Sequence record: OP114734.1 | From: Escherichia phage vB_ESM-pEJ01 | Strand: one strand, 5' to 3' | DNA length: 64,000 nucleotides | In this document: piece after piece, positions 8,581-63,241 of the stretch | How the letters are laid out: each line of letters starts with the position of its first letter | How positions within the stretch are numbered: position 1 is the first letter of the stretch | Notes under the pieces: generated by a model | Databases searched by the model: none | The model's input: only the letters and a program-made list of their open reading frames with translations | Told to the model about the DNA's origin: nothing | Made by a program: the position numbers and the translations under genes

Positions 8581-9105
8581 TTAGTAGCCTCGTTCTTGAC
8601 GGGCGAAGTTTTCAGCATTTTTCAGATAGTACAGAATAAAGAGTTCTTGAGCGTCAATACCCAGCGGGATCATCTTTGACAGAATGAAGTGGATCGCGTC
8701 CACAAATTCAAATTTCACTTCAAGCTGATCTTCCGGTGACAGTTCAGAGAATTTACGCGCTCGCGCTTCTCCGTGGTTCTTTTTCCACATTTTCCAGATT
8801 GCACTTGCATCTTTACCATTGGACATTCCACCCAGCGATGTGTAAAGCTCTCGTGTTTCGTCTGCGATAGCGTCATCCATCCGCTGCATCCAATCCAGCA
8901 TTTCACCGCAAGTCTCTAGCTTAGTTGGATTTGGGACCCAATCAAATTTTTCGGATAATGCAACCTGCAAACCAGTTTGCATTTCGAGCATCACCTGAAA
9001 CGGATCTTTACCTTCTGCAATAGCGTGATGATATGCGGCGATAGCCGCGTTAATATCTTTTTCGTTAACCAGACCAGCACAAGAATTAAATTCTGACATA
9101 TTCAC
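8581..9105 (-). CDS. 56: dCTP pyrophosphatase (dCTPase-dUTPase) gp56
   Basis: DETRELYTSLGGMS, LSPEDQLEVKFE, LYYLKNAENFARQERGY match remembered T4 gp56. Confidence 0.9.
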   Translation of the reverse strand: MNMSEFNSCAGLVNEKDINAAIAAYHHAIAEGKDPFQVMLEMQTGLQVALSEKFDWVPNPTKLETCGEMLDWMQRMDDAIADETRELYTSLGGMSNGKDASAIWKMWKKNHGEARARKFSELSPEDQLEVKFEFVDAIHFILSKMIPLGIDAQELFILYYLKNAENFARQERGY

Positions 9106-11766: not shown

Positions 11767-13179
11767 TTAGAAAGTCATGTTATTTGCTAGCTCGTCGAGT
11801 TTTTCTCGTTTCTCGGCTTGCTGTGCGCTTTGTGGTTTAACTTGTGCATTCTCCTGATCTGCGATCTGGTTTGGTACTTCATACCAACGCTGATTGCCTT
11901 TTTTCACACCAACGTTAAACCGTGAATAATAGTTCTTATCACCGTAACGAGACTTGATCTGCTTCATGAGTTGGACGCCCATTTTAGCCAGGTCTTCGGT
12001 TTCGATAACACCCAACATAAAGTCGGCAGTAGCCGGAAGACCTGCCGATTCAGCGGTATCACTCATGTTAAGGTCGGAAGCATCCCAACCCGCGCGGGTA
12101 GTCTGTGCCGCAGTCCAACCAACAACATCCCACTTAACAAAAAATCCTCGCAGTTCTTCCGCAATCGCCTTAACTAGTGTGTAACTATTTTCAGAGTATA
12201 CACGCAAGCGAGACGATGCGCAAATCCCAAGATAGTCAACAATCACAACATCAGGTTTAAACTGTTTCTTGAGTCGCAATTCATTCATTAACGCCTCAAA
12301 GTGATTGGAGTTCGCGCCACCAGTCGGATACTGCTTGATCATCAATTTTCCAACCGGACGATCTCCGATCTTCTTATTCTTAACACGCTTCATACGTGCG
12401 GAATATTCCGCAAAAGAAACATTACCATTATCCAATTCATCTAATGTAATGTCAAGCAAGTTTGCGTCAATACGTTTGGCTACGACATGCTCTGCCATCT
12501 CCATTGAGATATACAATACATCATAACCACATTCCATATAATCCGCAGCAAGAGAACACAGTCCAAGCGATTTGCCAACGTTTACACCAGCAAGCAACAC
12601 GTTTAGCGTTTTTCTTTCCGCCCCTCCTTTCGTGATTTTATTCAACATCGGCAGCTTAAATGGGATCTTATTCGCCTTAGTCTGATATAACAGGAATCGT
12701 TTTTCAAAGTCATTAAACCAGTCATGACCTACATCAGAATCAAACGTAATGGATAGTGCTTCCTGCATAATTTCAGGAATAGCGCCCTCACTAGGCAATT
12801 TCTTATTCTGTTTCTCTTTTGGTAGTTGTGCGTTCGCCTGAATCTCTAGCGCCCGTGACATTGCATTGTACATAGCACGGTCACGAATAAATTTTTCGGT
12901 TTCCTTCATTAACCAATCAAGGTCTTCCGGTGTATTCTCCAGCGAATCGAGAAGAGTTTTAGCCCCTTCATATGTTGTCTGATTGCCTCTCTCCTTGTCT
13001 AAAGCAATCTGTAATGCAGTTGGCGTAGGAATATTGGAATATTCGTCTACGTGCTTTTTAATCAGCTTATAAATCAGTTTTTCTTCGTCTTCGGTGAAGT
13101 AGTCCGCTTTAAGGTGAGGCCATACATTCGTAAAGAATGCGCCATTGTAAATCAACTGTGAAAAGATAGTTTTAATCAT
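11767..13179 (-). CDS. 41: replicative DNA helicase gp41 (DnaB-like)
   Basis: Near-colinear with remembered T4 gp41: LNVLLAGVNVGKSLGLCSLAADY, YISMEMAE, IKSRYGDKN. Confidence 0.93.
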   Translation of the reverse strand: MIKTIFSQLIYNGAFFTNVWPHLKADYFTEDEEKLIYKLIKKHVDEYSNIPTPTALQIALDKERGNQTTYEGAKTLLDSLENTPEDLDWLMKETEKFIRDRAMYNAMSRALEIQANAQLPKEKQNKKLPSEGAIPEIMQEALSITFDSDVGHDWFNDFEKRFLLYQTKANKIPFKLPMLNKITKGGAERKTLNVLLAGVNVGKSLGLCSLAADYMECGYDVLYISMEMAEHVVAKRIDANLLDITLDELDNGNVSFAEYSARMKRVKNKKIGDRPVGKLMIKQYPTGGANSNHFEALMNELRLKKQFKPDVVIVDYLGICASSRLRVYSENSYTLVKAIAEELRGFFVKWDVVGWTAAQTTRAGWDASDLNMSDTAESAGLPATADFMLGVIETEDLAKMGVQLMKQIKSRYGDKNYYSRFNVGVKKGNQRWYEVPNQIADQENAQVKPQSAQQAEKREKLDELANNMTF

Positions 13180-13493
13180 ACGTAGCCCCCAACTACACGC
13201 ATAACAAAGGTCTTGAGTTTATACCAGAAAGTTTCTTTTTTCAACTTTTCTTCTGCTTCTTTGATCTGCGCGGTTAACGCCTTAATGACGTGTGGATATA
13301 CCACATCACGATCTGACGGCGTGGAGTAGTCGACCACAATACCTTTAGTGTCTGGATCGTATTCAACATTATGAATATAGACAATATGATGTTCTCCCTC
13401 TTCATCAACAATTATCAGTTCCTGAATAACTGTCTTCATTGCTTCTTGAATCAAGCTGTGTGCTTCTTCTAAACTTGTTGGTTTCTTATCCAT
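13176..13493 (-). CDS. small acidic protein at the T4 gene-40 position
   Basis: 105-aa ORF between gene 41 and uvsX as in T4; sequence identity not verified. Confidence 0.5.
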   Translation of the reverse strand: MDKKPTSLEEAHSLIQEAMKTVIQELIIVDEEGEHHIVYIHNVEYDPDTKGIVVDYSTPSDRDVVYPHVIKALTAQIKEAEEKLKKETFWYKLKTFVMRVVGGYV

Positions 13494-13534
13494 AATATAA
13501 TCCTCTCAGTCAAAATATCATTTTACTACTTTAA

Positions 13535-14311
13535 TTATTCTATGTCAACAAATTTCCAATTTGGAAAGTCTGGACTCATACAACGACGCCGAACGGTTCC
13601 GCGCTCGTTTCCTAGTACCTTAGATACTTCCGATACAGATTTATAAATCACACCATCAACAAATACAGCCTTTCGGTCTTTCCTGTTTTGGTTTTTGCTC
13701 TTTTCTCTTCTGGCTTCTACGTTATCCGAATCATTCCATTGTCTCTTTGCTGTCTCTCTGGAAGATATTGCCTTTTGTTCTTTAACAATATCTTTAACGA
13801 GTTGTTCTTGTCCTGTTATCTTCGCCCACACATTAACAGACTGGATAGCATTAGCCTCACTCATTCCCCAGCGTTTGCCGGATATATTCTTACGACGCAC
13901 GCGTAGAAATTCGTTAAAGACTTCTTCGCATTGGTGCATATAATCACGAAATCCATATTTCTTAGCCCATGCCTCTTTAATTGCATCAGACATATTTTCG
14001 GCAATACGTCTACGCATCCATGCATACTCCTTATTATTGCGACCGTGACTGGTCATGCACATCATACGCGAAGCCATAATAAGACCCACATGTTTAGGAT
14101 ACATTTTAGCTAAAAGTAGATGTGCTGTAAAGTGTTCCTCTGGAGTCAATGGAACGAGATTTTCGTGGTCATCGGTTCCACCCATACAACGTGGTTTAAC
14201 GTGATGGATCTCTACATATCCGGTCGGCTTCTCGCGGGTTCTTGCTCGTTCAATCAATTTTTTGTAATGTGCTTTGTAGTTCATGTGATCCTCCATATGA
14301 AAAAGGGGCAT
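13535..14311 (-). CDS. HNH homing endonuclease
   Basis: HNH motif GYVEIHHVKPRCMGGTDDHENLVPLTPEEH; basic C-terminal putative DNA-binding region; inserted between gene-40-position ORF and uvsX. Confidence 0.75.
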   Translation of the reverse strand: MPLFHMEDHMNYKAHYKKLIERARTREKPTGYVEIHHVKPRCMGGTDDHENLVPLTPEEHFTAHLLLAKMYPKHVGLIMASRMMCMTSHGRNNKEYAWMRRRIAENMSDAIKEAWAKKYGFRDYMHQCEEVFNEFLRVRRKNISGKRWGMSEANAIQSVNVWAKITGQEQLVKDIVKEQKAISSRETAKRQWNDSDNVEARREKSKNQNRKDRKAVFVDGVIYKSVSEVSKVLGNERGTVRRRCMSPDFPNWKFVDIE

Positions 14312-14335
14312 AACGCCCCTTAACTGTCACTGATA

Positions 14336-15406
14336 TTATGCTAACATATCTTCGATTTCTTTGTCAACTGCTTCGTCGCTGATAATCTGGCCTAACTGAT
14401 AATGATCGTTGATTGCTTTCTGGAAGTGCTCATTGGTCAGTAGAGGTTTCCAGAACTCCACACTGTCAGTGTCTTTTGCACGCACCTTGCGGTCTTCAAC
14501 TTCCATTTCTCCGGTCTCCTCGTTAAGAATAGCGCGAGAATACCAGCCATTTGATGGTTTAACTACCCAACCCAACTCCACCGCAAGATCCAGCAATCCA
14601 GAATAAGGATCGATGCCACCACTAAACGTTACGCTAATCGGGAACTTTGATCCCTCTCTAACCGTTCGTGATTTCTCGGCTTTCAGAATAAAGTCATAAC
14701 CCGTAACCTCGGTTCCTTCTTTCTGCTGGCGACGCCCAATGATGAAAATTTCATTGGAAGAGTAAACGCCACCAGTACCGCCACCCATGATATCTTTCGG
14801 GTAAAGATCCATTGAGCTATAAACGTGGTTAATCGCAATGCACGGAATATCATTCATGGTCAGATACGGCGTAATCATACGGAACAAGCCTTTAAGTGCT
14901 TTAGCTCTCGTCATATCCTGTGCCGATTTCTCATTAATCGCGTCTTCAACTTCTTTTTTACTTGCCAAGTTACCGATTGAGTCAATAAAGATGATCACTT
15001 TATCTTCACGGGTAATTTGCTCAAGCTGGTTCATGATCTCAAATTTAAGTTCTTCGATGTTCTTGATTGGAACGTGCACCACTCGATCAGGATCTACACC
15101 CATAGATGACAGATACGCGGAAGTAATGCCAAATTCTGAATCAAAGAACAAACAAGCCGCATCTGGATTCTGTTTCATGTATGCACTAACACAAGTTAAT
15201 CCCATGTTTGATTTAAAGTGCTTAGACGGACCAGCAAAGAAAATCAGACCAGATTGAAAGCCTTTTTTAAGATCACCAGAAAACGCAATATTCAGCATCG
15301 GGATCTTAGTGCGAGTATTTGTTTTTTCGTTAAAGAAGCTGGATTTAGACAGTACCGCAGTAGTTTTCAGGGTAGAGTTCTTTTTCAGTTTTTCCAGTAC
15401 AGACAT
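14336..15406 (-). CDS. uvsX: UvsX recombinase (RecA-like)
   Basis: KIPMLNIAFSG, GPSKHFKSN (Walker A), FIDSIGNLASKKE match remembered T4 UvsX. Confidence 0.93.
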   Translation of the reverse strand: MSVLEKLKKNSTLKTTAVLSKSSFFNEKTNTRTKIPMLNIAFSGDLKKGFQSGLIFFAGPSKHFKSNMGLTCVSAYMKQNPDAACLFFDSEFGITSAYLSSMGVDPDRVVHVPIKNIEELKFEIMNQLEQITREDKVIIFIDSIGNLASKKEVEDAINEKSAQDMTRAKALKGLFRMITPYLTMNDIPCIAINHVYSSMDLYPKDIMGGGTGGVYSSNEIFIIGRRQQKEGTEVTGYDFILKAEKSRTVREGSKFPISVTFSGGIDPYSGLLDLAVELGWVVKPSNGWYSRAILNEETGEMEVEDRKVRAKDTDSVEFWKPLLTNEHFQKAINDHYQLGQIISDEAVDKEIEDMLA

Positions 15407-15417
15407 TATTAATACCT

Positions 15418-15645
15418 CTATTCAGTTAATCCGTAATACTTTAATTGCTTCATTGTTATTCGATCTTTGTAGTGCTCTTGAATTAACTTTTTCATCACAT
15501 CAACATCGATCGTCACAAATACTTCGTTGCTGTGATTTCCGTGAACTTTCTTGAAATGCTCTATGCCTTCCTCACGTTCACGTTTAATCTTTTCAATGTC
15601 TCTCATAATATATTTCTCACATTGGCGGGTATCGTAACCCAACAC
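15418..15645 (-). CDS. hypothetical protein (75 aa)
   Basis: Only ORF between uvsX and gene 43. Confidence 0.5.
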   Translation of the reverse strand: MLGYDTRQCEKYIMRDIEKIKREREEGIEHFKKVHGNHSNEVFVTIDVDVMKKLIQEHYKDRITMKQLKYYGLTE

Positions 15646-15667
15646 CCGCCATTATACACACTTTATC

Positions 15668-18346
15668 TTAAATGTCAAACAGGTCCGTAAGCGATGCCAC
15701 CTTTTCATATTGCAGCTTTGCAGCCGTGGTAATGTTCTCCAGTGGTTTGACGAAAGTCTTATTAAACAACAAAGGCCAGTCCAACCACTTCAACACCTCT
15801 GATTCAATTTCTGGAGGAATACGAGTACCAGACAACCAACCAAAACAGATTTCTCCAAACGGATTTCGATCTTTAAGCGGTACAATCATAACCTTCTCGC
15901 CTTCACGAATCGGATCTAGTCCGAATTTTCGAGCATTACGATTATAACACAATACACTCTTAACCGCATACGGACAACCCTTAATCGGATACCCGTTTGA
16001 ATCGCTGTATTTCTGTAGGTTGTTTGCAGATGATACCGCAGCAACATCAAGATAGTCAAGTTTTCTAAATTCTTGCTCAAAAATACCGTAGTATTCCTGC
16101 AATGACTCTTCACCTTCCTGCAACATACGGCGAATACATTCTTTCAGTGATTTCTGACATGCTTTAGGGGTGGAGCTACGTTGCGTTTCCAAGCCCATGA
16201 TTTTTAGCTTAGGTTCAGCAAAGCGCGTTCCTTCCATATCCCAAACATTAAGAGCATAACGCTTTTTGCCAGTCCAGAATCCACCGATACCCGCAGATTT
16301 CAACGGAGGACCAGCAATTGCCTCACGGTCCATAAACATCAAGTGCTCATAGTTGTTCATGTACTCGCATAACTCGCGATATCCCTTGTCGATAATAGGT
16401 TCCATTCGATGTTTACCGAAATTATCAAGGAAGTCAACAAGTTTTTCGGTATCGTCGAAACGATCTTCCCCGCCAACCTTATCAACAACATTGTTAACCA
16501 GCACATAAACGGAGTCAGTATCACAATAACGAACATATGCAAAATCGGTTGTTCCGCAAAGCTCGTTTAAGTATTCGTTAATCTTACGCTCAATCCACTG
16601 AATTGCAAGCTGACCGAACAGTGTGATCGCACTAGCGTTACGGAGATCATAAAAACGGAATTTAGGATTCCCCAACGCACCATAAAGTGAGTTGATCAAA
16701 ACTTTTCGAGAAAGCTGGTTTGTATTGCACAAGATCGACTCGTCTTTACATTCTTCCAGCAATTTCTCTAAGGTATCTTTGCTTAATTCAGAAAGCATCG
16801 ATTTAAACGCTTCATCGAAGTCGTGACGCACTTCAACGCTATAGCTAATGGTTCCCCCATAAACATGATTTTCATCGTGTAGAATCGCTTTACATAGTTC
16901 AGCATTGCGATCACATGCCAACATCATGTTTTTGTACTGCTTACGCTGATCGAATACCTTTTTAATCTCAATCGGTACGATACCATGAATATCTTTTCTA
17001 TACATCCATCCGTTAGGCGAGCAAGAATACTCATCACTCGGACGTGGTGCAGTTTTATTGATATACTCGTGCATCGGTGCAGCATCAAAAGATCCAGCGA
17101 TTGTTTCAGGAGAAATATTAACCTGTCGAATAATAGATGGGTACAGACTTGTTAAGTCAAAGCTCATCATCCAACGGTAAGCATTTGGCACAGGTTCTTT
17201 TACAAATGCGCCTGGATACGTCTGCTTAGGCTGTATCTTATTTTCCGGTACTACTTTACCCTCAGCTTTCAGAGATCCGAAGATAATAGCATCCCATACT
17301 TTCATCGGGTTATAAACATGGTTAAATTTAATCTTTGCATAGAAACATAGACTATACACAAGATCGATAAATCCACGCTTTTTATCAATCGCCAGCACAC
17401 GATCAACGTCGCCGATGTTATAATCGATGTAAAGTTGATGGTTGTCATCACGCAATTTCTTTAACGGACCATCATAATCAACCTTACCGATTCCTGTCTC
17501 ATATTCAGCAACATAATCTAACGCATATGTTGGTTGAGTCGTAAAGCTAAATTTCTTGTACAGGTCAATATAATCAAGGCTTTCGATCCCCATGATCGTA
17601 AATGCTTCACGCTCGTTGCCAAAATCATCCTGTGAGATTCTGGATTTAATCTTACCGCACGGGCTTAGACGGTTAGCGGTTCTACTTCCGAACTTATTAC
17701 TGATACGTTTAATGATATATGGAATATCGAATGTTTCTGTGTTCCAGCCAGTGAAACCAACGGGTCGGTTTTCCTCAAAGAATCGGATGTATTCTAACAG
17801 CAATTCATCTTCTGTGTCATAGACGTTATAAACAACGCGCTCTACAATATCAGGTCGAAGAATAGACTTGCTTGCTTCCCAGATTTCACCGTTTTTTCCT
17901 TTCAAATCAAATACAAAGAAACGATCATGTACGGAATCATAATGCGTAATTGCATCGATAGGATATTTCGCTTCTTCTGGTTTAGGAAATTCTGGGGCAG
18001 TGACCTCAATATCAACCCATGCTACACGGATTTTATTTCGGTCATATCGAATCTCGCCTTTATACGTATCAGACAGATAGGAGATGATAAAATCATCCAT
18101 CCCTAGTGCCTCCTGCCCCATTTCTCCCATCTTTTTACGCCATTTGTTGGCCTCGTTCATAGATGGGAATTTTTTAGCAATGCAAGGCTTGCCATAGATA
18201 TCTTTATAATTCGTAACCATACCAGGCGCGGCATGATGAAATAATGTTGGCGTATATTCAACGTAACGCTCTTGTTCTTGTCCAGCATCATCAATATAAC
18301 GCTCGTAGATCTTATCACCTACTCGCTCACATGACAGAAAATACAT
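15668..18346 (-). CDS. 43: DNA polymerase gp43 (family B)
   Basis: Colinear with remembered T4 gp43 (YGKPC, SFDLTSLYPSIIRQVNISPET, YCDTDS); start set to ATG at 18344-18346 with AAGGAG SD (track starts at upstream GTG 18376). Confidence 0.95.
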   Translation of the reverse strand: MYFLSCERVGDKIYERYIDDAGQEQERYVEYTPTLFHHAAPGMVTNYKDIYGKPCIAKKFPSMNEANKWRKKMGEMGQEALGMDDFIISYLSDTYKGEIRYDRNKIRVAWVDIEVTAPEFPKPEEAKYPIDAITHYDSVHDRFFVFDLKGKNGEIWEASKSILRPDIVERVVYNVYDTEDELLLEYIRFFEENRPVGFTGWNTETFDIPYIIKRISNKFGSRTANRLSPCGKIKSRISQDDFGNEREAFTIMGIESLDYIDLYKKFSFTTQPTYALDYVAEYETGIGKVDYDGPLKKLRDDNHQLYIDYNIGDVDRVLAIDKKRGFIDLVYSLCFYAKIKFNHVYNPMKVWDAIIFGSLKAEGKVVPENKIQPKQTYPGAFVKEPVPNAYRWMMSFDLTSLYPSIIRQVNISPETIAGSFDAAPMHEYINKTAPRPSDEYSCSPNGWMYRKDIHGIVPIEIKKVFDQRKQYKNMMLACDRNAELCKAILHDENHVYGGTISYSVEVRHDFDEAFKSMLSELSKDTLEKLLEECKDESILCNTNQLSRKVLINSLYGALGNPKFRFYDLRNASAITLFGQLAIQWIERKINEYLNELCGTTDFAYVRYCDTDSVYVLVNNVVDKVGGEDRFDDTEKLVDFLDNFGKHRMEPIIDKGYRELCEYMNNYEHLMFMDREAIAGPPLKSAGIGGFWTGKKRYALNVWDMEGTRFAEPKLKIMGLETQRSSTPKACQKSLKECIRRMLQEGEESLQEYYGIFEQEFRKLDYLDVAAVSSANNLQKYSDSNGYPIKGCPYAVKSVLCYNRNARKFGLDPIREGEKVMIVPLKDRNPFGEICFGWLSGTRIPPEIESEVLKWLDWPLLFNKTFVKPLENITTAAKLQYEKVASLTDLFDI

Positions 18347-18428
18347 AATATAAACTCCTTCATTTACGAAAGACACTCATTATAGGGGAATCGACCTAGT
18401 TTGTCAATACCCCTATCCCATCAGTATC

Positions 18429-18791
18429 TTAGCGTCCGATCTGATATTTCTCGATCAGCGTCCACTCTTCTTTCTGTTTGAAAGACAGTACACGGAAATT
18501 ATTAACTTCGGTAGTTTCAAAATCACTATCAATCAGGGTACACAGATTCCACTGCGCCAGAAGTTTTGCAATGTTATTACGGCGTAATTCATCTTCCCAC
18601 GTCATTTTAACACTACGACCATCTAATTTCAACAACTCCTTGAAATGAACGATGTAATAGCGCCCCTTCTTCTGGAGAATATGACAAGACTGATACAGTG
18701 TCTTGTCTCGATTGTTGGCAATGCCGCAGCGGGTTAAAGTCTCCTTAATTTTAAGGAAGTTTTCAGGACTAATCAAATTAATTTCAATCAT
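18429..18791 (-). CDS. regA: RegA translational repressor
   Basis: MIEINL...KETLTRCGIANNRDKTLYQSCHILQKKGRYYIVHFKE matches remembered T4 RegA. Confidence 0.9.
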   Translation of the reverse strand: MIEINLISPENFLKIKETLTRCGIANNRDKTLYQSCHILQKKGRYYIVHFKELLKLDGRSVKMTWEDELRRNNIAKLLAQWNLCTLIDSDFETTEVNNFRVLSFKQKEEWTLIEKYQIGR

Positions 18792-18792
18792 T

Positions 18793-19371
18793 TTACCACC
18801 TTTCTATAATCTTTTTAAGTCGTTTCCTTTCTGTCTGATTCTTAGTAACACCCGCCAAAAGTTCATCGGTCGCATACGGTTTAATGTGCTTCAATAACTT
18901 GTCCATATATCCCTTTTCATTAGCCAAATCGAGATAAAACCGGGCGTCATCCATATTTACACAATATGCTTTCGCCACTGCCATTAAAACCAATTTTTGG
19001 TCCAATTCTTCTGTTAGTTTAGCCCATTTACCGTATCGTTTCCCCTTAGAAATACTCTGTAAGAGATAATCAAAATGCATTTGATCTGGGAGGCCATGAC
19101 CGATTAAATTCATCACATACGCGCTATATAGGCAATCTGCGTGCTGGGAAAGAGCGGTGTTAATCCATCTCTGGTTATATGCAGAATTGTTTCCCACATT
19201 AACGCGCTGTTTATCTAAGGTGATATGATCCATCAGAGCAAATAATGCATTGTCGGTTTTCTCGGTGAATGTATCCGCTAATTCAGACACCTTTTCCCAA
19301 TCACGAGAACGCCATGCAATTTCATGCTCGTTTAATTGTGTATCATCTTCACCGAAAAATTGACCTAACAT
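18793..19371 (-). CDS. 62: clamp-loader subunit gp62
   Basis: QLNEHEIAW...RYGKWAKL match remembered T4 gp62; start overlaps gene 44 stop (TAATG). Confidence 0.85.
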   Translation of the reverse strand: MLGQFFGEDDTQLNEHEIAWRSRDWEKVSELADTFTEKTDNALFALMDHITLDKQRVNVGNNSAYNQRWINTALSQHADCLYSAYVMNLIGHGLPDQMHFDYLLQSISKGKRYGKWAKLTEELDQKLVLMAVAKAYCVNMDDARFYLDLANEKGYMDKLLKHIKPYATDELLAGVTKNQTERKRLKKIIERW

Positions 19372-25224: not shown

Positions 25225-26250
25225 CTAACTTTTTGCGTTATTTACTTCGGCTAAAAGTTCATCAGAAATACGCTTGACCGCCGCAAGTTCTTCCGGTTCT
25301 AGGTTTTGTTCTTCCAGATATTCATAGACCATCTGAATAGTGCTTTTAACTTCAATAACACCTGTTTCCTGTGATGCGCTACTCTCCAGTTTATGGACCA
25401 CCTTTAGCTTGTGTACAACGGCCTCTAACGCGCTTTCTAACTTAGTTAACCCATTATCAGCGACCGTTGCGATAAGACGCACACTAAGCCCTTTAAAGCG
25501 TTCGACATCGATTTTATCGTCTGACGGGTAAGTGATACGCACATGATAAGTTTTGTCATTCTGAATAAACTCTTTTTTGTGTGTATCGGTATCGAATACC
25601 CAAAAACCACGCGGATCGTTTTCGTCACCCGCCGTTAGTGTGTATGGTGTACCAATATACGTTACGTTACCGCCATCACTGATAGTATGAAAGTGACCCG
25701 AAAACACTTCACGGTATTTCTTGAGGAAGTCCGCGCTATAACCTTCGGATTTTAGCCCTTTATAGAAATAGTAACCGGACAATTCCCAATGGCCTACACA
25801 ATATTCGCTGAATGAGTTTTGAATAAACTCTAAAATCTCTGATTTATTGTCATCACAAAACCACGGGAACAGATCAAATGATACACCATCAAAGGTAACT
25901 GTTTCCGGTTTATCGATAACCTTAATGCAATCATACTGGCTTAACACTTCACGCGGTGCGTTAGGCTGGATCTTGTTTCGTTTAAACATATCATGATTCC
26001 CGACCGTGGTATAACAAGTAATATCAGCCTCTTCCAGTAACGGGATGACCTTAGTACGGTTAAATTTCATGGTTTCATGGGTAATTGCTTTTCGGCAATC
26101 AAACCAATCCCCTGTTTGAATCCATGTCTTAATATTATGCTCTTTGGAGTATTCAACCGCTTTCTTGATGGTATCAAGAATATACTCATGCACCCACGGA
26201 TCATCGCCACCGATACCAGTATGCAGATCACCTAAAAGCAAAATTTTCAT
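25225..26250 (-). CDS. 47: recombination endonuclease subunit gp47 (Mre11/SbcD-like)
   Basis: MKILLLGDLHTG, GNHDM, GHFH phosphoesterase motifs; GAGGAAG SD. Confidence 0.92.
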   Translation of the reverse strand: MKILLLGDLHTGIGGDDPWVHEYILDTIKKAVEYSKEHNIKTWIQTGDWFDCRKAITHETMKFNRTKVIPLLEEADITCYTTVGNHDMFKRNKIQPNAPREVLSQYDCIKVIDKPETVTFDGVSFDLFPWFCDDNKSEILEFIQNSFSEYCVGHWELSGYYFYKGLKSEGYSADFLKKYREVFSGHFHTISDGGNVTYIGTPYTLTAGDENDPRGFWVFDTDTHKKEFIQNDKTYHVRITYPSDDKIDVERFKGLSVRLIATVADNGLTKLESALEAVVHKLKVVHKLESSASQETGVIEVKSTIQMVYEYLEEQNLEPEELAAVKRISDELLAEVNNAKS

Positions 26251-26302
26251 AGTCTCTTCCTCTCTTCGTTTTCGATGCTCTCACTATATCACAGAAAAAT
26301 AA

Positions 26303-26318
26303 AAAGGGAAACCCCTTT
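26303..26318 (-). terminator. putative rho-independent terminator (aaaggg/cccttt hairpin plus U-run)
   Basis: Hairpin followed on minus transcript by UUAUUUUUC; just 3' of ORF 26341..26628. Confidence 0.35.
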
Positions 26319-26340
26319 CAGAGTCTCCCTTATAAAGCCA

Positions 26341-26628
26341 TTACAGCATACTTAATACCGTTTGCCGTGTACTAATCCACATAGCAGAAAGCAGTTCTGG
26401 CGTGTGTGGCTGTTTGTAGATATCACGTAATTTTCCGATAGCGTAGATATACGCATCACGATTATCATCGATGATAGCTTGTTCAGCCCACCGCTTAAGG
26501 CGTGCAATCTCTCGCGAGTTCTTACGCAAGATCTTTTCCGCTTTCTTAGCGGCTTTAGCCTCTAGTTCTGCTTGTACTTTGTCTACTTCATTCACTGCAA
26601 TCTGGTCATGCTGTTCATCGTAAGTCAT
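26341..26628 (-). CDS. hypothetical protein (95 aa)
   Basis: ORF track. Confidence 0.5.
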   Translation of the reverse strand: MTYDEQHDQIAVNEVDKVQAELEAKAAKKAEKILRKNSREIARLKRWAEQAIIDDNRDAYIYAIGKLRDIYKQPHTPELLSAMWISTRQTVLSML

Positions 26629-26629
26629 G

Positions 26630-26863
26630 TTATTTTCCTTCTGGGATATAGTCGATGATTAAAGAAAATTCATCTTCTGATACATTATAGCTATGTGAGA
26701 TTGTACCCGTAAAGACCTCAAGATCCGGTGATTTGATATTGCACGGATCGATAATCACCGGAACGCCGCAATCTCTCAAAAATAATTTGGCGAAATACGG
26801 CACGAGGTCAGTTTCAAACTCTGCTTCTTCCAGCAAACGGGAAATGTTAATTTTCAATCTCAT
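26630..26863 (-). CDS. hypothetical protein (77 aa)
   Basis: ORF track. Confidence 0.45.
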
Positions 26864-27380
26864 AAAATTGGTCCAGGCTAGGCAATTCCTCGGTCAATAC
26901 ATCTTCAACCTTTGGCGCTTTCGGTTTATTGACCGATTCCTCGTAGTTGTTGATTTTATCGTAAATGTCCTGTATGAATGCCTCATCAGCAATCTGGCAC
27001 ATATCAGCGTCGCGTTCGTCATATACATGATGCACAAAATATTTGTATTTTGCGGCTGTCGCTGTTCTCTCTTTTTTAATGCGCTGTACAAAAGCATTAA
27101 AGCACGCTTGCGTGATGTAAGCATGAGGATTTTTATACTTTGTCTCGTCAAAATTAATCAAACCCTTGACCGCCGCTTCGATTCCGTCGTCGATCATTTC
27201 TTCGCGCCATGTTTGACTATAACCAGAAAAGTTAAAACGACGTGATAGATTTTTAGAGATTTGCATAATTGCTAGGCCGATTTGATCGCTCATTGGAACT
27301 TGCCGACCTTCTGCTGCAATTTGTTGTTTCCAACGGCAAATTTCTTCGTAAAGCTCTTTATTGTTTACATAATCAGACAC
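26847..27380 (-). CDS. 55: late-transcription sigma factor gp55
   Basis: [50 protein letters not shown] match remembered T4 gp55. Confidence 0.9.
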
Positions 27381-27420: not shown

Positions 27421-28890
27421 CTATTCCCCATTGCCATTATACTTTCTTTGCTTAGTTATCCACACTCTAACCATCTCTACTGATTCACCGTCAGACGGAT
27501 CAAGAGTTTTTCCTTTTTTCTTCATGCGGTACTTAAATCCGTTAAATCTTGCATTCTCTTGCTCGTTAAAGTCGAACATCTTTTTAAATGATTTTCGCCC
27601 TTTACGCTCACCACATTCTAGCGGAATCATTCGGTCTGTTATTACATTGGCATTAGGTAGAAACGTTTTTAGATAATCCACCAACGCCCAATCAGGAACA
27701 TATAGATTAACATTCTCCTTGCTCTCGTTGTCTCTCAGGTTACAACGCAAACATAATTGAAATGCTGGTTCCAGATAATCAGACACATGACGCGCTTTCA
27801 AAAACTCATTTGTCGGGAGATCACAACTATTAGCAAGACCTTTTAAAATATCAATCTCCCATCGTTGAGGGTTAAAGCTGAACATCACAGCAACATTTTT
27901 ATGATGAATGTAAGAGTTAAGACCATAAGATCCGTAAGGTATCCGCTCACCAATACCATTTGTACACGCTTCACGGTCCCGATTCACGGTATAAATGAAG
28001 TCATCACCACATTCATTTTTAACCATATCAACAAGACGTTCAAAGGTATTGTTTGTTTCTGACTGGTGACGCGACCATCGTTCGGAGTCCGTCATGAGGA
28101 TGATATTAACTCTATCTGTATTTTTATACTCTTTGAAATATAGTCGGGATTCTAGCGCACTCGGAACAAAATCGCAATTTTCATAGTATCGTAGATACTT
28201 CCCGCTATATGTATCAAAGAGATTTGCACATGCTATCGTAACCTTTTTAAAGTCTCCCCACGTACCGTGTTTGTTATCGTTCAAGAAAACAATTTTCGAC
28301 CCGTTCTTCCGGTGTCCTTCGTTATGTTTTACCATAACGTTGATTTTCTTCTCTAATAACGCCTCATAAAGCCCTCTAAGAGAAGAATCGATCATATCAG
28401 TACCATCCTTTGCACTTTCTATCTTTTCTTTGATAGCGGCCTTCTCAGAGTCTTTTAGAACTAAGTTCTGTAGGCATTCCGATTCGTCGGCGATTGGTTC
28501 GCAATGCTTCGTGATAAGTTCAAGATTAGACTTAAACGGATACTCATTAAATTCAACCAGTTGAGGAACTTCATCAATGTAAAGAGCATATTCACCAAAC
28601 ATTTTTGAACGTTCCATATTAGATAACGCTGTATGTGTAATGAATATCACATCAGCACCATCTTTAACTGATTGCATTATCGACGCTTGCACTGTCTTAA
28701 GGCTTCTTAGTCTTGTGCTATCAATCAAGACAGCACGACCGCCCATTCTTTTAAACTTATTGTAAGATTGTTCACTTAAAACACGAGATGGCGAAGCAAT
28801 AACCGCTTTTTCTTTTGTCTCTAGGACGTGGGAAAGTATAGCATCAGTTTTCCCCGCCGCTGGCAATGCGATTAATGTTTCAATCTTCAT
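27421..28890 (-). CDS. P-loop NTPase of unknown function (489 aa)
   Basis: Walker A LPAAGKT near N-terminus; candidate Walker B ALYIDEV about 95 aa later; large unassigned C-terminal region; sits where T4 carries alpha-gt. Confidence 0.6.
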   Translation of the reverse strand: MKIETLIALPAAGKTDAILSHVLETKEKAVIASPSRVLSEQSYNKFKRMGGRAVLIDSTRLRSLKTVQASIMQSVKDGADVIFITHTALSNMERSKMFGEYALYIDEVPQLVEFNEYPFKSNLELITKHCEPIADESECLQNLVLKDSEKAAIKEKIESAKDGTDMIDSSLRGLYEALLEKKINVMVKHNEGHRKNGSKIVFLNDNKHGTWGDFKKVTIACANLFDTYSGKYLRYYENCDFVPSALESRLYFKEYKNTDRVNIILMTDSERWSRHQSETNNTFERLVDMVKNECGDDFIYTVNRDREACTNGIGERIPYGSYGLNSYIHHKNVAVMFSFNPQRWEIDILKGLANSCDLPTNEFLKARHVSDYLEPAFQLCLRCNLRDNESKENVNLYVPDWALVDYLKTFLPNANVITDRMIPLECGERKGRKSFKKMFDFNEQENARFNGFKYRMKKKGKTLDPSDGESVEMVRVWITKQRKYNGNGE

Positions 28891-29198: not shown

Positions 29199-29357
29199 TT
29201 ACTTAATGATACTTACTTTACCAGATCCGTGACAATGAGCGCAACACCCATCACCACGCAATCCTGTTCCGTTACAGTGTTTACACTTCTTCAACGGTAA
29301 AGCCATTATAGCAAATAAAGCAATAATGAATACCGAAACTAAATTCTCAATAATCAT
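29199..29357 (-). CDS. small membrane-anchored protein with DnaJ-type zinc finger (52 aa), not in ORF track
   Basis: MIIENLVSVFIIALFAIMALPLKKCKHCNGTGLRGDGCCAHCHGSGKVSIIK: one hydrophobic helix then two CxxCxGxG repeats; GAGGG SD. Confidence 0.4.
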   Translation of the reverse strand: MIIENLVSVFIIALFAIMALPLKKCKHCNGTGLRGDGCCAHCHGSGKVSIIK

Positions 29358-29616
29358 AAATCGCCCTCAGTTCTTTATAGCCTCCAATGTGCTCGTTGTC
29401 AATGAATATCTGGGGGTATACAAACCGGAGGCTCTTTGAGTTTAGCCTCCCCGCCAGTTCTTCAATCATATCACGGTCGGGAATAATGTCAACCCCGACC
29501 TGCTTGAATACTGGTTTAAGTGTATACGGAATACCCAGATCATCCAGTAGCTTCATTGCACTAATACAACCATAACAATGATAAGCCTCTTTCGGTATAC
29601 CGTATATCTCGATCAT
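29347..29616 (-). CDS. glutaredoxin/NrdH-like redoxin
   Basis: CxxC active site YHCYGC near N-terminus, 89 aa. Confidence 0.7.
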   Translation of the reverse strand: MIEIYGIPKEAYHCYGCISAMKLLDDLGIPYTLKPVFKQVGVDIIPDRDMIEELAGRLNSKSLRFVYPQIFIDNEHIGGYKELRAIYDY

Positions 29617-31937: not shown

Positions 31938-32447
31938 TCAAATAATTTTCACTGGAATACTATTAACAATCTTGTATTGTACTTGATTGTCAGACCCCCG
32001 CCACGGCTTCTTCGTTGGCATATCTTTAATATAACGCCCATCGATGAACATGTCAACTGATTCTACAATTTTTCTTTGCTCATCATTCAATTGGTCAAGG
32101 GTATAACCAGACCATAGCCAAATATCTTTATTTGGCATCCATGATTTTACTTCATCGATGATCCGCTGTACACCCTTTAAATTGCGTTTATACAGTGGAT
32201 CGCCACCTAAGAATGTTAGCCCCTGAATAAAATCAGGTCTAAGCAGGTCCAGAATCAATCCCATTGTATCATCGGTGAATGGTTCCCCGTTCTTAGGATT
32301 GAGTAGGCTAGCATTAAAGCAACCATCACATGCGTGTGAACATCCGGTAACGTAAAGGGAGACTCTCACTCCCTCACCGTTAACCATATCACAATCTTTA
32401 ATATCGGCATAGCGTAGTTTGCCGTATGTATCAGAACTCATATTCAA
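31938..32447 (-). CDS. nrdG: anaerobic ribonucleotide reductase activating protein NrdG (radical SAM)
   Basis: CSHACDGC radical-SAM cysteine cluster; about 160 aa. Confidence 0.88.
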   Translation of the reverse strand: MNMSSDTYGKLRYADIKDCDMVNGEGVRVSLYVTGCSHACDGCFNASLLNPKNGEPFTDDTMGLILDLLRPDFIQGLTFLGGDPLYKRNLKGVQRIIDEVKSWMPNKDIWLWSGYTLDQLNDEQRKIVESVDMFIDGRYIKDMPTKKPWRGSDNQVQYKIVNSIPVKII

Positions 32448-33851: not shown

Positions 33852-35714
33852 TTACATGTGCTTAACGCGGTTTACCATCTCGGAGTGTTTCCCGTGGTTA
33901 AATGGACGCAGATCAACAGATCCAAGATATCCACTAACGCGACGGATAACATTCATCTTTTCCAGATTGTCATTGCCGCAATCAGGACAAACAAAACCAG
34001 ACTCGGTTGCTCTCATTTCCTTAGTAGATCCGCATACATGACATACATCAGAAGGAGTATTAACACCGAAGTAGTGCAATTTATCCATTGCATAGTCTAC
34101 TACAGTTTCAAGACCTTTCAGGTTGTTTTTCATGTCTGGGAACTCAACATAAGAGATCATGCCACCGGACGCCAGCCAGTGATAATCTTTCTCAAAGTCG
34201 ATTTTCTCAAATGGAGTGACTTTCCGGTCTACGTCAAGGTGGAATGAGTTGGTGTACCAGTCTTTATCGGTAGCACCCTTAACAATACCAAATTTCTCTC
34301 TGTCCAGTCGATTAAATCGATAGCAAAGACTCTCGGCTGGCGTACCGTAAAGACTAAACCCAAGTCCGGTTTCGTCCTTCCATTTTTCAGTATAATGACG
34401 CAAGATCTTAAGAATATGTTTACCGTATCGCTGCGCATCTTCCGAATCAAACGGATGAACACCAAACAGGACGCTCAATACCTCATGTAAACCAATATAT
34501 CCAAGAGAGATACTAGCGCGACCATCTTTCAACACTTCCAAAATTTCATCGTTTTGATGAATACGGAAAAATGCACCTTCGGTATACAGTACAGGAGCAA
34601 CATTGGCTTTAGCCCCTTTTAAAGCGTCTACGCGACTCATAAGCGCATCAAAACAAATAGGCAGACGATTCGCTAGCTCTTGTTCGAATAGCTCAATTCT
34701 GCGCATTACAGACTCTTTACCAGCACGACGCGCGGCAATAAGGGCAATACGCGGAAGATTCAGAGTCACAACACCTAAGTTATTACGTCCGTCTAATACT
34801 TCTTCGCCTTTCTCATTATGCCACACACCCAGGAAGCTACGACAACCCATCGGGCTAACCGGAACACTAGATCCAGTGATGCTACGGTTATTCTTCGCAG
34901 AGATATAATCAGGGTAAAGACGCTTACTCGAACATTCCAATGCAAGTTGCTTAATGTCGTAGTTCGGATCTTCCGGTTTAAGGTTTAATCCTTCTTCTAA
35001 GAACATCACCAGCTTAGGAAACACCGGAGTTATACCGTCTTTACCTAAACCTTTAGTTCGAACTTTCAGGATCGCTTTCTGAATCAGTTTTTCTTCCCAG
35101 CTAGTACCCATACCAAAGGTTAAAGTCACAAAAGGCGTTTGACCGTTGGTGGAGAACAAAGTGTTGATTTCATATTCCAACGCTTGATACCCGTCTAAAG
35201 TTTCTTTTTCTGTCTTCTCTTGTGCATAGAGAGTATCAGCTTTGATTCCGTAGGTTTCGGCATCAGCAAGGTGTTTATGATATGTTTTCTCAACGTATGG
35301 CGCTAAAACCTGATCGATGTTTGCGATTGTGGTCCCGCCATATTGATGACTTGCCACCTGTGCGATAATTTGAGCGGTTACAGCACAAGCAACGCCGATT
35401 GATTTCGGACTTTCGATTTGTGCGCTACCCAATTTAAAACCATTCTCTAACATGTCTTTGAGATTAACAAGACAGCAGTTAGTAAACGGCATAGCGGGTG
35501 CATAATCCATATCATGATAATGAATGTCACCGTCTACATGCGCTTTATAGATGTGCTCAGGTAACACGGTTTTAGCAATCTGTTTAGACACAGCACCAGC
35601 AATCAGATCTCGACGTGTCGGGAATGTTCGCGCGTCTTTGTTCGCGTTCTCTTTGCTTACTTCGTTTTCTTTACCCGTTGCGATCTCTGTAATGTCTTTG
35701 ATTAGTTTTTCCAT
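33852..35714 (-). CDS. nrdD: anaerobic ribonucleoside-triphosphate reductase NrdD (glycyl radical enzyme), uninterrupted
   Basis: 620 aa; C-terminal glycyl-radical motif RRVSGYLGS and Zn-ribbon CHVCG...CPDCG. Confidence 0.93.
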   Translation of the reverse strand: MEKLIKDITEIATGKENEVSKENANKDARTFPTRRDLIAGAVSKQIAKTVLPEHIYKAHVDGDIHYHDMDYAPAMPFTNCCLVNLKDMLENGFKLGSAQIESPKSIGVACAVTAQIIAQVASHQYGGTTIANIDQVLAPYVEKTYHKHLADAETYGIKADTLYAQEKTEKETLDGYQALEYEINTLFSTNGQTPFVTLTFGMGTSWEEKLIQKAILKVRTKGLGKDGITPVFPKLVMFLEEGLNLKPEDPNYDIKQLALECSSKRLYPDYISAKNNRSITGSSVPVSPMGCRSFLGVWHNEKGEEVLDGRNNLGVVTLNLPRIALIAARRAGKESVMRRIELFEQELANRLPICFDALMSRVDALKGAKANVAPVLYTEGAFFRIHQNDEILEVLKDGRASISLGYIGLHEVLSVLFGVHPFDSEDAQRYGKHILKILRHYTEKWKDETGLGFSLYGTPAESLCYRFNRLDREKFGIVKGATDKDWYTNSFHLDVDRKVTPFEKIDFEKDYHWLASGGMISYVEFPDMKNNLKGLETVVDYAMDKLHYFGVNTPSDVCHVCGSTKEMRATESGFVCPDCGNDNLEKMNVIRRVSGYLGSVDLRPFNHGKHSEMVNRVKHM

Positions 35715-38957: not shown

Positions 38958-39239
38958 TTAACCATTAATCTTGTTTTTGACTACAAAGGATCTGAACTCA
39001 TCAAAACCACCTATATAATCACCATTATAGAAAATCTGCGGCATGGTGGCAATAACTTCTACCCCTGCGCGATCCTGAATGTCGGCAATGATAGAATCAA
39101 TCTTTACCGGACGACCGTTTTCGTCTACACCATCATTAACCGGAATGTAGATGTAAGGGATCTTACGCGATTCACAAAGGCGCTTTGCATTCTGGCAATA
39201 CTTACAGTTGTAACCTTCAAAACCAAAAATTTCTACCAT
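38958..39239 (-). CDS. nrdC: NrdC-like glutaredoxin/thioredoxin
   Basis: CKYCQNAKRL CxxC site and C-terminal TMPQIFYNGDYIGGFDEF resemble T4 NrdC; start at ATG 39239. Confidence 0.8.
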   Translation of the reverse strand: MVEIFGFEGYNCKYCQNAKRLCESRKIPYIYIPVNDGVDENGRPVKIDSIIADIQDRAGVEVIATMPQIFYNGDYIGGFDEFRSFVVKNKING

Positions 39240-39240
39240 G

Positions 39241-39996
39241 TTATACCTCATTCAGTTCTATATCAAGTTCATTTTCAATAATATAGGCATTAACTGCCCG
39301 TGCCGCATCATCTTCTGTGTCAAATCTTCCTATATACACACCGCGAACTTTAGCACCGTAATTACCTTGTTTTGGTACTTTGTAAACGTATCTATGACGG
39401 GAACTTGCTGCTTTTTGGAGCTTCTTGCCATATTCAGACTTTGCATATTCTATATCATCAATCTCGTTTATACAAGACCTATCACCAAAATGTTTCAACG
39501 CTGCAAGATTATATGCATAAGCCGCACCGATCTCGGAGGGAAAATATCCTAAATGTATAGACTTCCCATCCAACATTATTGCACCAGTCCAATAACCTTT
39601 ATTCTTATTAAACGACACACCTTTATACTTCGAATATGTTTTGCATTTGGTCTTGCTCATATTCATATTATTTTGTTTGCTTGTCGTCTCTCTAAGGTTT
39701 TCAATGCGGCTATTATAACGATCTCGGTCTTTATGATCTATATACTTAGGACAATGACCATGAAACATATGATAGATAACACGGTGCATACGTTCGTATC
39801 GCTCGCCAGTCCATACAATACGATACCCATCGGGGGTATCACTTCCAGCTAATCCGTTTATAACACCTTTTCGGTGCGGGTGAATCTTCCACCTAAGAAA
39901 ACCATCATCATAATAAAACCGTGAATGATATAAATCATACAAACGTTTATCTTCTGGAGTCTTGTGTATAACCTCATATTTTAACATTGGTGACAT
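39241..39996 (-). CDS. HNH homing endonuclease with two AP2-type DNA-binding domains
   Basis: HNH HRVIYHMFHGHCPKYIDHKDRDRYNSRIENLRETTSKQN; AP2-like YKGVSFNKNKGYWTGAIM...AAYAYN and YGAKVRGVYIGRFDTEDDAARAVN. Confidence 0.8.
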   Translation of the reverse strand: MSPMLKYEVIHKTPEDKRLYDLYHSRFYYDDGFLRWKIHPHRKGVINGLAGSDTPDGYRIVWTGERYERMHRVIYHMFHGHCPKYIDHKDRDRYNSRIENLRETTSKQNNMNMSKTKCKTYSKYKGVSFNKNKGYWTGAIMLDGKSIHLGYFPSEIGAAYAYNLAALKHFGDRSCINEIDDIEYAKSEYGKKLQKAASSRHRYVYKVPKQGNYGAKVRGVYIGRFDTEDDAARAVNAYIIENELDIELNEV

Positions 39997-40789
39997 AAAC
40001 TTCCTTAGTATCGGATTTTTTACCCCCGCTACGGTCTAAACAATATGTTTTATCCAGTTCAACAACAGAAATATCATTACGTTCGATAAAATCAAGCAAA
40101 TGGTTGTTAACTTTCCCTTTGTGGTGAGTAACATTGCTTAATCCAAACTTAGTACCGCTAGACATTAATGATTCTATCCACATGTAGAATTTAATCTCTT
40201 CTTCTTCACTCCAGAACTTATTATATTCTGCCGACGTGATCCAATATGGCGGATCAAGGAAAACGAAATCACCTGGCAAGATCTCGATCTCATCATAACG
40301 ACCAGACGTAAAACTGATTCGACCGTCTTTGTTTTCTTCCTTAAAATTCAGGACACGCTCTACCGCGTTTTCGTTAAAAGTCCGTCGGCCAAAATTAGCA
40401 TTAAATTCGCCCTTCCGGTTGTGGCGGTTAATGTTGCTAAAACTATGCTGAATCAACACAAACAGCGATAACGGATCTGGATTCTCGTTATACTTCTTAC
40501 GGAATGTCATGTAAGCGTCTTTATCTTCGCGAGACAAACCATTTTCGGCAATAATACGCTTGATCGTAGAAACCGGATCAGGACACTCGTCAATCGCTTT
40601 GTACGCGTCAATTAAGCGGTGATCATAGTCATTAGCCAGCACATCCCCTTCGACGTACAGAGACACGCTCAAGCCGCCACAGAAGGCATCAACAAAGCGG
40701 TTATAGTGCTTAGGGAAATACTTACTAACACTTGGCAATAACTTTTCCTTATTCCCAGTATAGGGAATTAAACCTAATGCTTTCTTCAT
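39974..40789 (-). CDS. dam: DNA adenine methyltransferase (Dam)
   Basis: FVDAFCGGLSVSL (SAM binding) and FVFLDPPYWIT (DPPY catalytic motif); resembles remembered T4 Dam. Confidence 0.88.
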   Translation of the reverse strand: MKKALGLIPYTGNKEKLLPSVSKYFPKHYNRFVDAFCGGLSVSLYVEGDVLANDYDHRLIDAYKAIDECPDPVSTIKRIIAENGLSREDKDAYMTFRKKYNENPDPLSLFVLIQHSFSNINRHNRKGEFNANFGRRTFNENAVERVLNFKEENKDGRISFTSGRYDEIEILPGDFVFLDPPYWITSAEYNKFWSEEEEIKFYMWIESLMSSGTKFGLSNVTHHKGKVNNHLLDFIERNDISVVELDKTYCLDRSGGKKSDTKEVYVTNVKI

Positions 40790-48598: not shown

Positions 48599-49195
48599 TT
48601 ATTTGGTAGTACCGTCAATAAAATGTTTACGGCACACAGAGACATATTTATCCTCTGCACCAACTTCTATTTGAGCACCATCGCGAATAACATTACCCTC
48701 TTTATCTACACGAAGGACCATTGTTGCTTTCTTGCCACAATGACAAATACCCTTCATTTCGACCAGTTTATCAGCAAATGCCATTAATGCCGCAGATCCT
48801 TCAAATAGATTGCCCTGAAAGTCGGTGCGAAGGCCATAGCACAGTACAGGGATATTTGCATCATCGACAAGCGCACACAAGCCTAAAACATGCTCTTTAG
48901 TCATAAATTGGGCTTCATCTACAAATACAGCATCAGGACGCCATCGATCCGGTCTACGCTTACCTAACGATTCACGATAAACCAAATCGAAAAGATCATC
49001 CGATTCAGTGAAGGTGATCGCTGGAGCACTTAGGCCAATTCGGGAAACAACTTCACTTTCTGAATCTCGATTATCAATCGCTGGCTTAAGAATTAATACT
49101 CGCATATCACGTTCGGTATAGTTATAAGCACTTTGTAACAGAGAAGTTGATTTGCCAGCGTTCATAGATGCATAGTAGAAATATAGTTGCGCCAT
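48599..49195 (-). CDS. tk: thymidine kinase
   Basis: Walker A YASMNAGKS, VDEAQF, C-terminal zinc ribbon CHCGKKAT...VCRKH. Confidence 0.9.
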   Translation of the reverse strand: MAQLYFYYASMNAGKSTSLLQSAYNYTERDMRVLILKPAIDNRDSESEVVSRIGLSAPAITFTESDDLFDLVYRESLGKRRPDRWRPDAVFVDEAQFMTKEHVLGLCALVDDANIPVLCYGLRTDFQGNLFEGSAALMAFADKLVEMKGICHCGKKATMVLRVDKEGNVIRDGAQIEVGAEDKYVSVCRKHFIDGTTK

Positions 49196-62584: not shown

Positions 62585-63241
62585 TTAAATGTTCGCGAGA
62601 ATCGCGCTTTCAAATTCTTCTAATGTACCATTATTTATGATGATGGTTTCACCGTCAATAGGCAAAATTCCTTTTTCGGTGGAGTGAGTCGATACAATAC
62701 CAGTATCACGCTGAATATGCAACACCTTAGCACCCATAGCACGCATGAGAGCAATTTCAATAGGCTGACGCACATCAACCACTACAAAATACCCTTCTTC
62801 ATTTTTGCGCTTCATAAACTCATCCACAAAGAGATTACACCAATAAAGCGGATTGATCAAGTTAACCATTATATCAGTACCGAGAGTGGTTAACATGAGA
62901 CGAATAGACCAGACGTTATTATGTTTTTCGCCGATCTCATTAACGACCTTGTAAATCTCAGCCAGACGATCACAAGTAAAGGAACTACCGCCATACTTCG
63001 AATCTAGCATAAGCAGACACTGAATAAACCACTTATGCGCGGTATAGGTATCAATACCTAGATCGGCTTCTCTGTCACGCCCTAACCCGTCAAAGTCAAG
63101 ATAAGTCAGACCTAAGTCTGGTTGACATTCGCATAAGATTTCTTTGATCGGTGCTGCCAGTTGATAACTATGTCCATCAATGATTAACGCGGCAGTGTCT
63201 TTTCCTACTCGCTTTTTACCACAAAGTGCAATCAATTTCAT
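62585..63241 (-). CDS. 1: deoxynucleoside monophosphate kinase gp1
   Basis: MKLIALCGKKRVGKDT P-loop; YQLAAPIK, TTLGTDIMVN, VVVDVRQ resemble remembered T4 gp1. Confidence 0.88.
   Translation of the reverse strand: MKLIALCGKKRVGKDTAALIIDGHSYQLAAPIKEILCECQPDLGLTYLDFDGLGRDREADLGIDTYTAHKWFIQCLLMLDSKYGGSSFTCDRLAEIYKVVNEIGEKHNNVWSIRLMLTTLGTDIMVNLINPLYWCNLFVDEFMKRKNEEGYFVVVDVRQPIEIALMRAMGAKVLHIQRDTGIVSTHSTEKGILPIDGETIIINNGTLEEFESAILANI

Follow-up and report, generated by a model that had tools for sequence, protein, structure and literature searches.

In T4, the genes for dCMP hydroxymethylase (gene 42) and beta-glucosyltransferase lie between the recombinase gene uvsX and the DNA polymerase gene 43, in the order uvsX–segA–beta-gt–42–imm–imm.1–43, and alpha-glucosyltransferase lies between genes 47 and 55, in the order 47–47.1–alpha-gt–mobB–a-gt.2 to a-gt.5–55. 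The original prediction gave these positions for beta-gt, 42, imm and alpha-gt, in agreement with the T4 gene order, and it stated that the genes are missing from the same positions in Escherichia phage vB_ESM-pEJ01. We analysed a 64,000-nucleotide stretch of this phage (sequence record OP114734.1; hereafter, the window), asking what fills the two places instead, whether the genes lie elsewhere, and what their absence means for the cytosine of the phage.

The interval at the first place, 15407–15667, is exactly the gap between the start of uvsX (15406) and the stop of gene 43 (15668) on the minus strand, and measures 261 bp. Within it lie an early promoter, a hairpin and a single small ORF, arranged with their neighbours as follows:

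15668–18376, minus strand: gene 43, DNA polymerase (Pfam DNA_pol_B and DNA_pol_B_exo1; KFS-EC and RB49 annotation)
15651–15678, minus strand: sigma-70 early promoter TTGACA-N16-TATAAT, matching 12 of 12 consensus positions and overlapping the end of gene 43
15623–15651, minus strand: GC-rich stem-loop directly 3' of the -10 box, part of a promoter-early stem-loop (PeSL)
15418–15606 (62 aa, from ATG) or 15418–15645 (75 aa, from GTG), minus strand: the sole ORF in the gap
14336–15406, minus strand: uvsX, RecA-like recombinase, 356 aa (Pfam T4_UVSX_C, 4.6e-33, and RecA; KFS-EC and RB49 annotation)
13535–14311, minus strand: free-standing HNH homing endonuclease between gene 40 and uvsX (Pfam I-TevI_DNA-bd and HNH)

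The two large genes are therefore separated only by the small ORF, as had been noted for its 75-aa form. The gene 43 ORF spans 902 aa from a GTG, while in relatives the annotation starts at a downstream ATG and gives 892 aa, and the UvsX product is 60% identical to T4 UvsX by tblastn.

A megablast search with window positions 13000–19000 matched 64 phage records, 58 of which cover at least 80% of the query at 90–99% identity, and all of the records listed are RB49-like coliphages of the genus Krischvirus. The best match is KFS-EC (98.8%), with RB49 at ~96%; positions 40000–64000 are 96–97% identical to AV108, RB49, SAP, TB34 and JSE, and the uvsX–43 interval itself is 100% identical to KFS-EC and 97.7% to RB49. 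Across the genus (RB49, KFS-EC, phi1, JSE, TB34, SAP), nucleotide identity to the window is 96–99%. No identical record was found among the matches in the phage collection, indicating a further Krischvirus isolate. The window has a GC content of ~40%, carries nearly all of its genes on the minus strand and, when matched against the annotated genes of RB49 and KFS-EC, starts just past rIIA and reaches gene 3. Its ORFs correspond one-to-one with those annotated in both relatives, including the RB49-specific RB49p025, ORF044c and dc1/dc2, and the gene orders 41–40–uvsX–small ORF–43–regA–62–44–45 and 47–a-gt.4–a-gt.5–55–ORF044c are common to the window and Krischvirus. By identity and gene order, the window is the early/replication region of an RB49-like, 'pseudo-T-even' coliphage.

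Differences from these relatives are found at homing endonuclease genes. The endonuclease between gene 40 and uvsX is present in KFS-EC (gp182, 'homing endonuclease') and absent from RB49, where the alignment shows a gap. The adjoining 3' part of uvsX (14336–14853, ~520 bp) is only 67–88% identical to RB49 per 60-nt block, while most of the rest is 95–100% identical; this divergent tract looks like homing-associated co-conversion or target divergence. A second such gene lies between nrdC and dam, which are directly adjacent, with no endonuclease between them, in both RB49 and KFS-EC:

39241–39996, minus strand: HNH_3 and AP2-domain homing endonuclease

Conversely, RB49 carries an HNH gene adjoining gene 47 that is lacking in the window isolate.

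The small ORF between uvsX and gene 43 is annotated in its 62-aa form in relatives, as RB49p025 in RB49 and gp184 in KFS-EC. At 95% identity or more it is found in 58 phage records, and its position is the same in those relatives whose annotation was checked. Its product is soluble, highly charged and not membrane-like. It matches PHROG 12120 (E 3e-41), a family without assigned function; a Pfam search gave no match, and a search of a large protein database gave four near-identical clusters and nothing else. We also noticed a similarity, at 48% identity over 50 aa, between this product and the N-terminus of a 430-aa DUF2800/PD-(D/E)XK nuclease of Klebsiella phage BUCT791, whose gene is located near the DNA polymerase gene; in Salmonella phage Akira a relative stands alone as an ORF of 60 aa. 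The ORF appears to encode a small mobile domain; that this domain is associated with replication or recombination, as the BUCT791 fusion might suggest, is only a guess. We considered the ORF as a diverged Imm or Imm.1, or as a remnant of gene 42 or beta-gt, and rejected both, as no similarity was found and the product is charged and soluble; tblastn of T4 Imm and Imm.1 against the window gave no match.

The promoter upstream of the small ORF has an equivalent in RB49, where an early promoter is annotated at the corresponding place. A 76-nt stretch containing the stem-loop folds with a minimum free energy of -24.7 kcal/mol (z = -5.9), and none of 200 shuffled sequences folds as well. A terminator scan found no terminator-like site, and since no T-run follows the hairpin, the stem-loop is not a canonical intrinsic terminator. 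Such PeSL cassettes have been described in RB49 and phi1 (Comeau et al. 2014, PMC4122927). The promoter and hairpin at the uvsX–43 junction share with them a near-perfect TTGACA-N16/17-TATAAT, followed by a hairpin of G-run, loop and C-run, beside a small ORF annotated without function, and by this architecture they are a PeSL cassette of that kind; in contrast to the described cassettes, the copy at this junction is set within the conserved replication core and not in a hyperplastic region. Arbiol et al. in 2010 reportedly treated PeSL cassettes as well. Near-consensus sigma-70 promoters are strongly biased in the window, with 36 on the minus strand versus 1 on the plus strand, and only a few of the 36 carry a comparably strong hairpin. 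At this junction, the promoter would presumably drive the small ORF and then uvsX. Krischvirus relatives share this promoter and hairpin, along with the absence of 42, a-gt, b-gt, alc and denB.

We next consider whether the missing genes can be detected at all. By tblastn against the 64-kb window, the complete KFS-EC genome and RB49 positions 1912–164018, T4 gp42, alpha-gt, beta-gt, imm and imm.1 gave no significant match in any of the three, and no match to either glucosyltransferase in the window, RB49 or KFS-EC was better than E 0.5. The sole gp42 match was the thymidylate synthase gene td in RB49 and KFS-EC (E 2e-4 to 8e-3), with the same outcome when 44RR gp42 was the query; such a match is expected between distant paralogues of the ThyA superfamily. 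All controls were found, at 32–63% identity (uvsX 60–63%, gp47 56%, gp55 61%, a-gt.4 44%, a-gt.5 32%). Since gp42 of T4 and 44RR are 55% identical to each other and controls in this range of identities were detected, a gp42 orthologue would have been visible.

The td product keeps the catalytic Cys and a PFNVASY motif, indicating a true thymidylate synthase. The Asn of this motif specifies dUMP, and gp42 carries Asp in its place. We rejected RB49 td (410 aa) as a disguised hydroxymethylase, as it consists of ThyA with an insertion of ~130 aa and has the dUMP-specifying Asn. In the 410-aa Krischvirus td, this insertion is in frame and splits the ThyA domain at roughly residues 120–250.

The functions that accompany modified cytosine in T4 were sought in the same way. 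T4 alc, denB, arn and ndd gave no significant tblastn match in the window, RB49 (1912–164018) or the complete KFS-EC genome; in T4, alc, denB and arn lie outside the region that matches the window, and their absence rests on RB49 and KFS-EC, in which the controls denA, cd and pseT.3 were found. The curated RB49 annotation likewise lists no 42, a-gt, b-gt, alc or denB, and in RB49 pseT.3 abuts rnlA at the point where T4 has alc. Unannotated ORFs between nrdH and nrdD were checked as candidate modification enzymes, and five had no Pfam match and one was goF-like. Nothing resembling a hydroxymethylase or a glycosyltransferase was found in the window, RB49 or KFS-EC.

A separate observation concerns transcription and the host nucleoid. 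T4 motA, asiA and ndd have no homologue at E <= 0.5 in the RB49 and KFS-EC genomes, which appear to do without T4-type middle-mode transcription factors and the nucleoid-disruption protein.

The second place, between genes 47 and 55, is occupied as follows:

25225–26250, minus strand: gene 47, SbcD-like nuclease subunit (56% identical to T4 gp47; annotated in relatives)
26341–26628, minus strand: a-gt.4 homologue (DUF2654), 95 aa (Pfam 1.3e-22; tblastn with T4 a-gt.4, E 3e-12)
26630–26863, minus strand: a-gt.5 homologue (DUF5491), 77 aa (tblastn with T4 a-gt.5, E 2e-7; the Pfam DUF5491 match, 3.3e-4, is below the curated cut-off)
26847–27380, minus strand: gene 55, late sigma factor (61% identical to T4 gp55; RB49 annotation)
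27421–28890, minus strand: 489-aa P-loop/DEAD-like protein, homologue of RB49ORF044c (Pfam DEAD, 3.3e-6; PHROG 2467)

The 47–55 interval (26251–26846) thus contains only the a-gt.4 and a-gt.5 homologues and no alpha-gt. An unrelated P-loop NTPase had been placed in this slot, but the 489-aa ORF lies past gene 55, at the position of RB49ORF044c, which was flagged as DEAD/DEAH-like as early as 2006 (PMC1524935). Aligned along its full length with ORF048c of Aeromonas phage 44RR, the protein shows 38% identity, and a Walker A GKT and a Walker B DE are visible in the alignment; no solved structure matches its sequence. Because ORF048c likewise directly follows gene 55, and 44RR does carry gene 42, we consider the 489-aa protein to be the product of an accessory gene conserved among T4 relatives outside the T-evens. 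Its location beyond gene 55 and this homologue in a gene-42-bearing phage led us to reject it as a substitute for alpha-gt.

In contrast to the hydroxymethylcytosine genes, the nucleotide-metabolism and methylation genes reported as retained (gp56, Dam, NrdD/NrdG, tk and glutaredoxins) were all located in the window, together with gene 1:

8581–9105, minus strand: gene 56, dCTPase/dUTPase homologue (PHROG 173, 5e-37; Pfam dUTPase_2; RB49 orthologue annotated gene 56)
29347–29616 and 38958–39251: two glutaredoxins, confirmed in the window
31938–32447: nrdG (Fer4_12, 2.4e-43)
33852–35714, minus strand: nrdD, anaerobic ribonucleotide reductase (Pfam NRDD, 1.9e-175)
39974–40789, minus strand: Dam, a D12-class N6-adenine methyltransferase (Pfam MethyltransfD12, 3e-30; DPPY at residue 179)
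48599–49195: tk, confirmed in the window
62585–63241, minus strand: gene 1, dNMP kinase (Pfam DNMK, 4.5e-68)

The gp56 of the window is 51% identical to that of 44RR. Gene 56 is found in nearly all T4 relatives (Petrov 2010, Table 4, PMC2993671), and because nearly all of them carry genes 56 and 1 regardless, these two genes are not diagnostic of modification (PMC2993671). Genes 56, 1, tk, nrdD/G and the glutaredoxins serve general dNTP supply, with cd, td, frd and nrdA/B lying outside the window. In such a pathway gp56 would act as a dUTPase and as a supplier of dCMP and dUMP for dTMP synthesis via Cd and Td, with dCTP not depleted.

Site-specific adenine methylation by Dam is expected, and it is the sole DNA modification for which the window offers a clear genetic basis. 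Outside the window, relatives have two more putative DNA methyltransferases, RB49p143 and RB49p189, one with an NPPF motif and one with C5-like FxGxG/PPC/ENx motifs. RB49p189 (KFS-EC gp079; 238 aa; PHROG 757), annotated 'DNA methyltransferase', has the motifs FDGSG, FPPC and ENP. It combines this C5 motif resemblance with a sub-threshold Pfam DNA_methylase match (E 0.059), and has no sequence match in the PDB. Some site-specific cytosine methylation may thus occur through a putative methyltransferase of this type.

Compared with T4, then, the phage shares the replication and nucleotide-metabolism backbone in T4 order, including 56, 1, tk, nrdD/G, dam and denA; it differs, together with its Krischvirus relatives, in lacking 42, both glucosyltransferases, alc, denB and arn, and imm, imm.1, ndd, motA and asiA are also missing on the Krischvirus side. 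The nearest complete relatives also have none of the functions useful only with modified DNA, namely Alc, DenB (endonuclease IV) and Arn. Judged by gene content, the entire network that makes and exploits modified cytosine is absent and the general nucleotide-supply genes remain.

While gene content, synteny and the absence of homologues were computed here, the chemical state of the DNA is drawn from the literature. RB49 has been described as 'missing hydroxymethylase and beta-glucosyltransferase' (Yaung et al. 2014, PMC4041780), and its DNA, in contrast to T4 DNA, is cut by HpaII and NheI, both of which are blocked by modified cytosine (PMC4041780). HPLC-MS of Krischvirus TB34 detected canonical nucleosides only, and the empty syntenic positions in the genus have been described explicitly (PMC13390438, 2026). 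Petrov et al. 2010 (Table 4, PMC2993671) list 42, denB and alc in T-even phages, JS98, RB69, CC31, Acinetobacter and some Aeromonas phages, and not in the RB49 type. RB49 is also capable of generalized transduction, and has retained denA and gene 56 (PMC8056088, PMC12115623).

Taken together, this Krischvirus very probably has ordinary cytosine DNA, without 42, alpha-gt or beta-gt, the isolate being like RB49 and TB34; for the ~100 kb of its genome outside the window, absence is inferred from relatives. The uvsX–43 junction is compact because the lineage has no genes for dCMP hydroxymethylase or glucosyltransferases. The missing genes are real but ordinary for RB49-like phages, in which the absence of the hydroxymethylcytosine module has long been known and features in reviews and comparative tables, the gene distribution having been tabulated in 2010 (PMC2993671). 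Of the three alternatives offered at the outset, a different cytosine modification, none, or genes outside the window, the RB49 digests and the TB34 HPLC-MS favour none; a different modification finds no genetic support and survives through a single report, on phage SAP.

SAP is 99.96% identical to TB34, and yet its DNA was reported to contain 5-hmdC together with alpha-glucosyl- and alpha-gentiobiosyl-methyl-dC, and the phage was restricted by the type IV enzyme BrxU (PMC13390438). Bulk cytosine hypermodification through a non-homologous pathway would account for these results, and the window does contain many unassigned ORFs that could host one, among them that of the 489-aa P-loop protein and several, 136–274 aa long, that lack a Pfam match. 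We nevertheless regard this explanation as very unlikely. TB34 is unmodified despite its near-identity to SAP, and the study identified no pathway for SAP, SNP mapping between the two phages giving no lead (PMC13390438). Seven Tequatrovirus phages that this study also handled have the same modification profile as SAP (PMC13390438). RB49, for its part, has DNA that is digested by modification-sensitive enzymes, transduces plasmids, consistent with the absence of host-DNA-specific nucleases, and, like KFS-EC, yielded neither a hydroxymethylase-type ThyA paralogue nor a glycosyltransferase. In our reading, contamination or a mix-up is a more likely source of the SAP result than a new pathway. A switchable pathway, encoded by genes without assigned function, would explain the difference between SAP and TB34, but that Krischvirus, possibly including this phage, makes hydroxymethylcytosine-derived bases without a ThyA-family hydroxymethylase or a known DNA glycosyltransferase seems to us highly improbable. 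Should the SAP report be genuine, gene content alone would not predict Krischvirus base composition, and reproducing modified cytosines in this genus would point to an entirely new route to hydroxymethylcytosine.

A second explanation, raised by the original prediction itself, is that the genes lie outside the 64-kb window at a position different from that in T4. Only ~39% of the roughly 164-kb genome is visible here, and T4-like genomes do rearrange, as illustrated by the inverted and relocated 46/47/55 block of RB43. However, taking the complete KFS-EC genome and RB49 (1912–164018) as proxies contradicts this possibility, as neither homologue nor annotation was found in them. Absence is moreover stated for the genus (PMC13390438, PMC2993671), and Alc, DenB and Arn, found together with 42 throughout the phages that Petrov 2010 lists, are absent too. 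We consider such displaced genes extremely unlikely.

Comparison with more distant phages bears on when the genes might have gone. The Pseudotevenvirus RB43 also lacks hydroxymethylcytosine genes and keeps gene 56; its uvsX abuts gene 43, and 47–a-gt.4–a-gt.5–55 are contiguous. RB43 differs from the window in having no small ORF between uvsX and 43, in the rearrangement of its 46/47/55 block, and in encoding a C5 cytosine methylase, RB43ORF127c (PMC1524935). In 44RR, gene 42 is present without glucosyltransferases and lies immediately downstream of 43, as in T4. Because T4 and 44RR both show it, the placement of 42 beside 43 is an old arrangement in the lineages that have the gene, making loss in some lineage conceivable; but recent loss by deletion at both junctions, in this isolate or its immediate ancestors, deserves almost no credence, as tblastn found no trace of beta-gt, 42 or imm within the 261 bp, 58 records share this compact interval and its small ORF, and the separate genus represented by RB43 is compact as well. 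On the same grounds, any loss would have been ancient and genus-wide rather than isolate-specific. By the gene orders compared here, the compact uvsX–43 junction is common to at least two genera without gene 42; it may reflect either ancient loss or genes that were never present.

Ordinary cytosine in this phage, as in RB49 and TB34, would have consequences for its encounters with bacterial defences and for its use. We predict that the phage is sensitive to classical restriction-modification and CRISPR systems, and that type IV enzymes, McrBC and GmrSD among them, leave it unaffected. Like RB49, it may perform generalized transduction, which is relevant to the choice of therapy phages.
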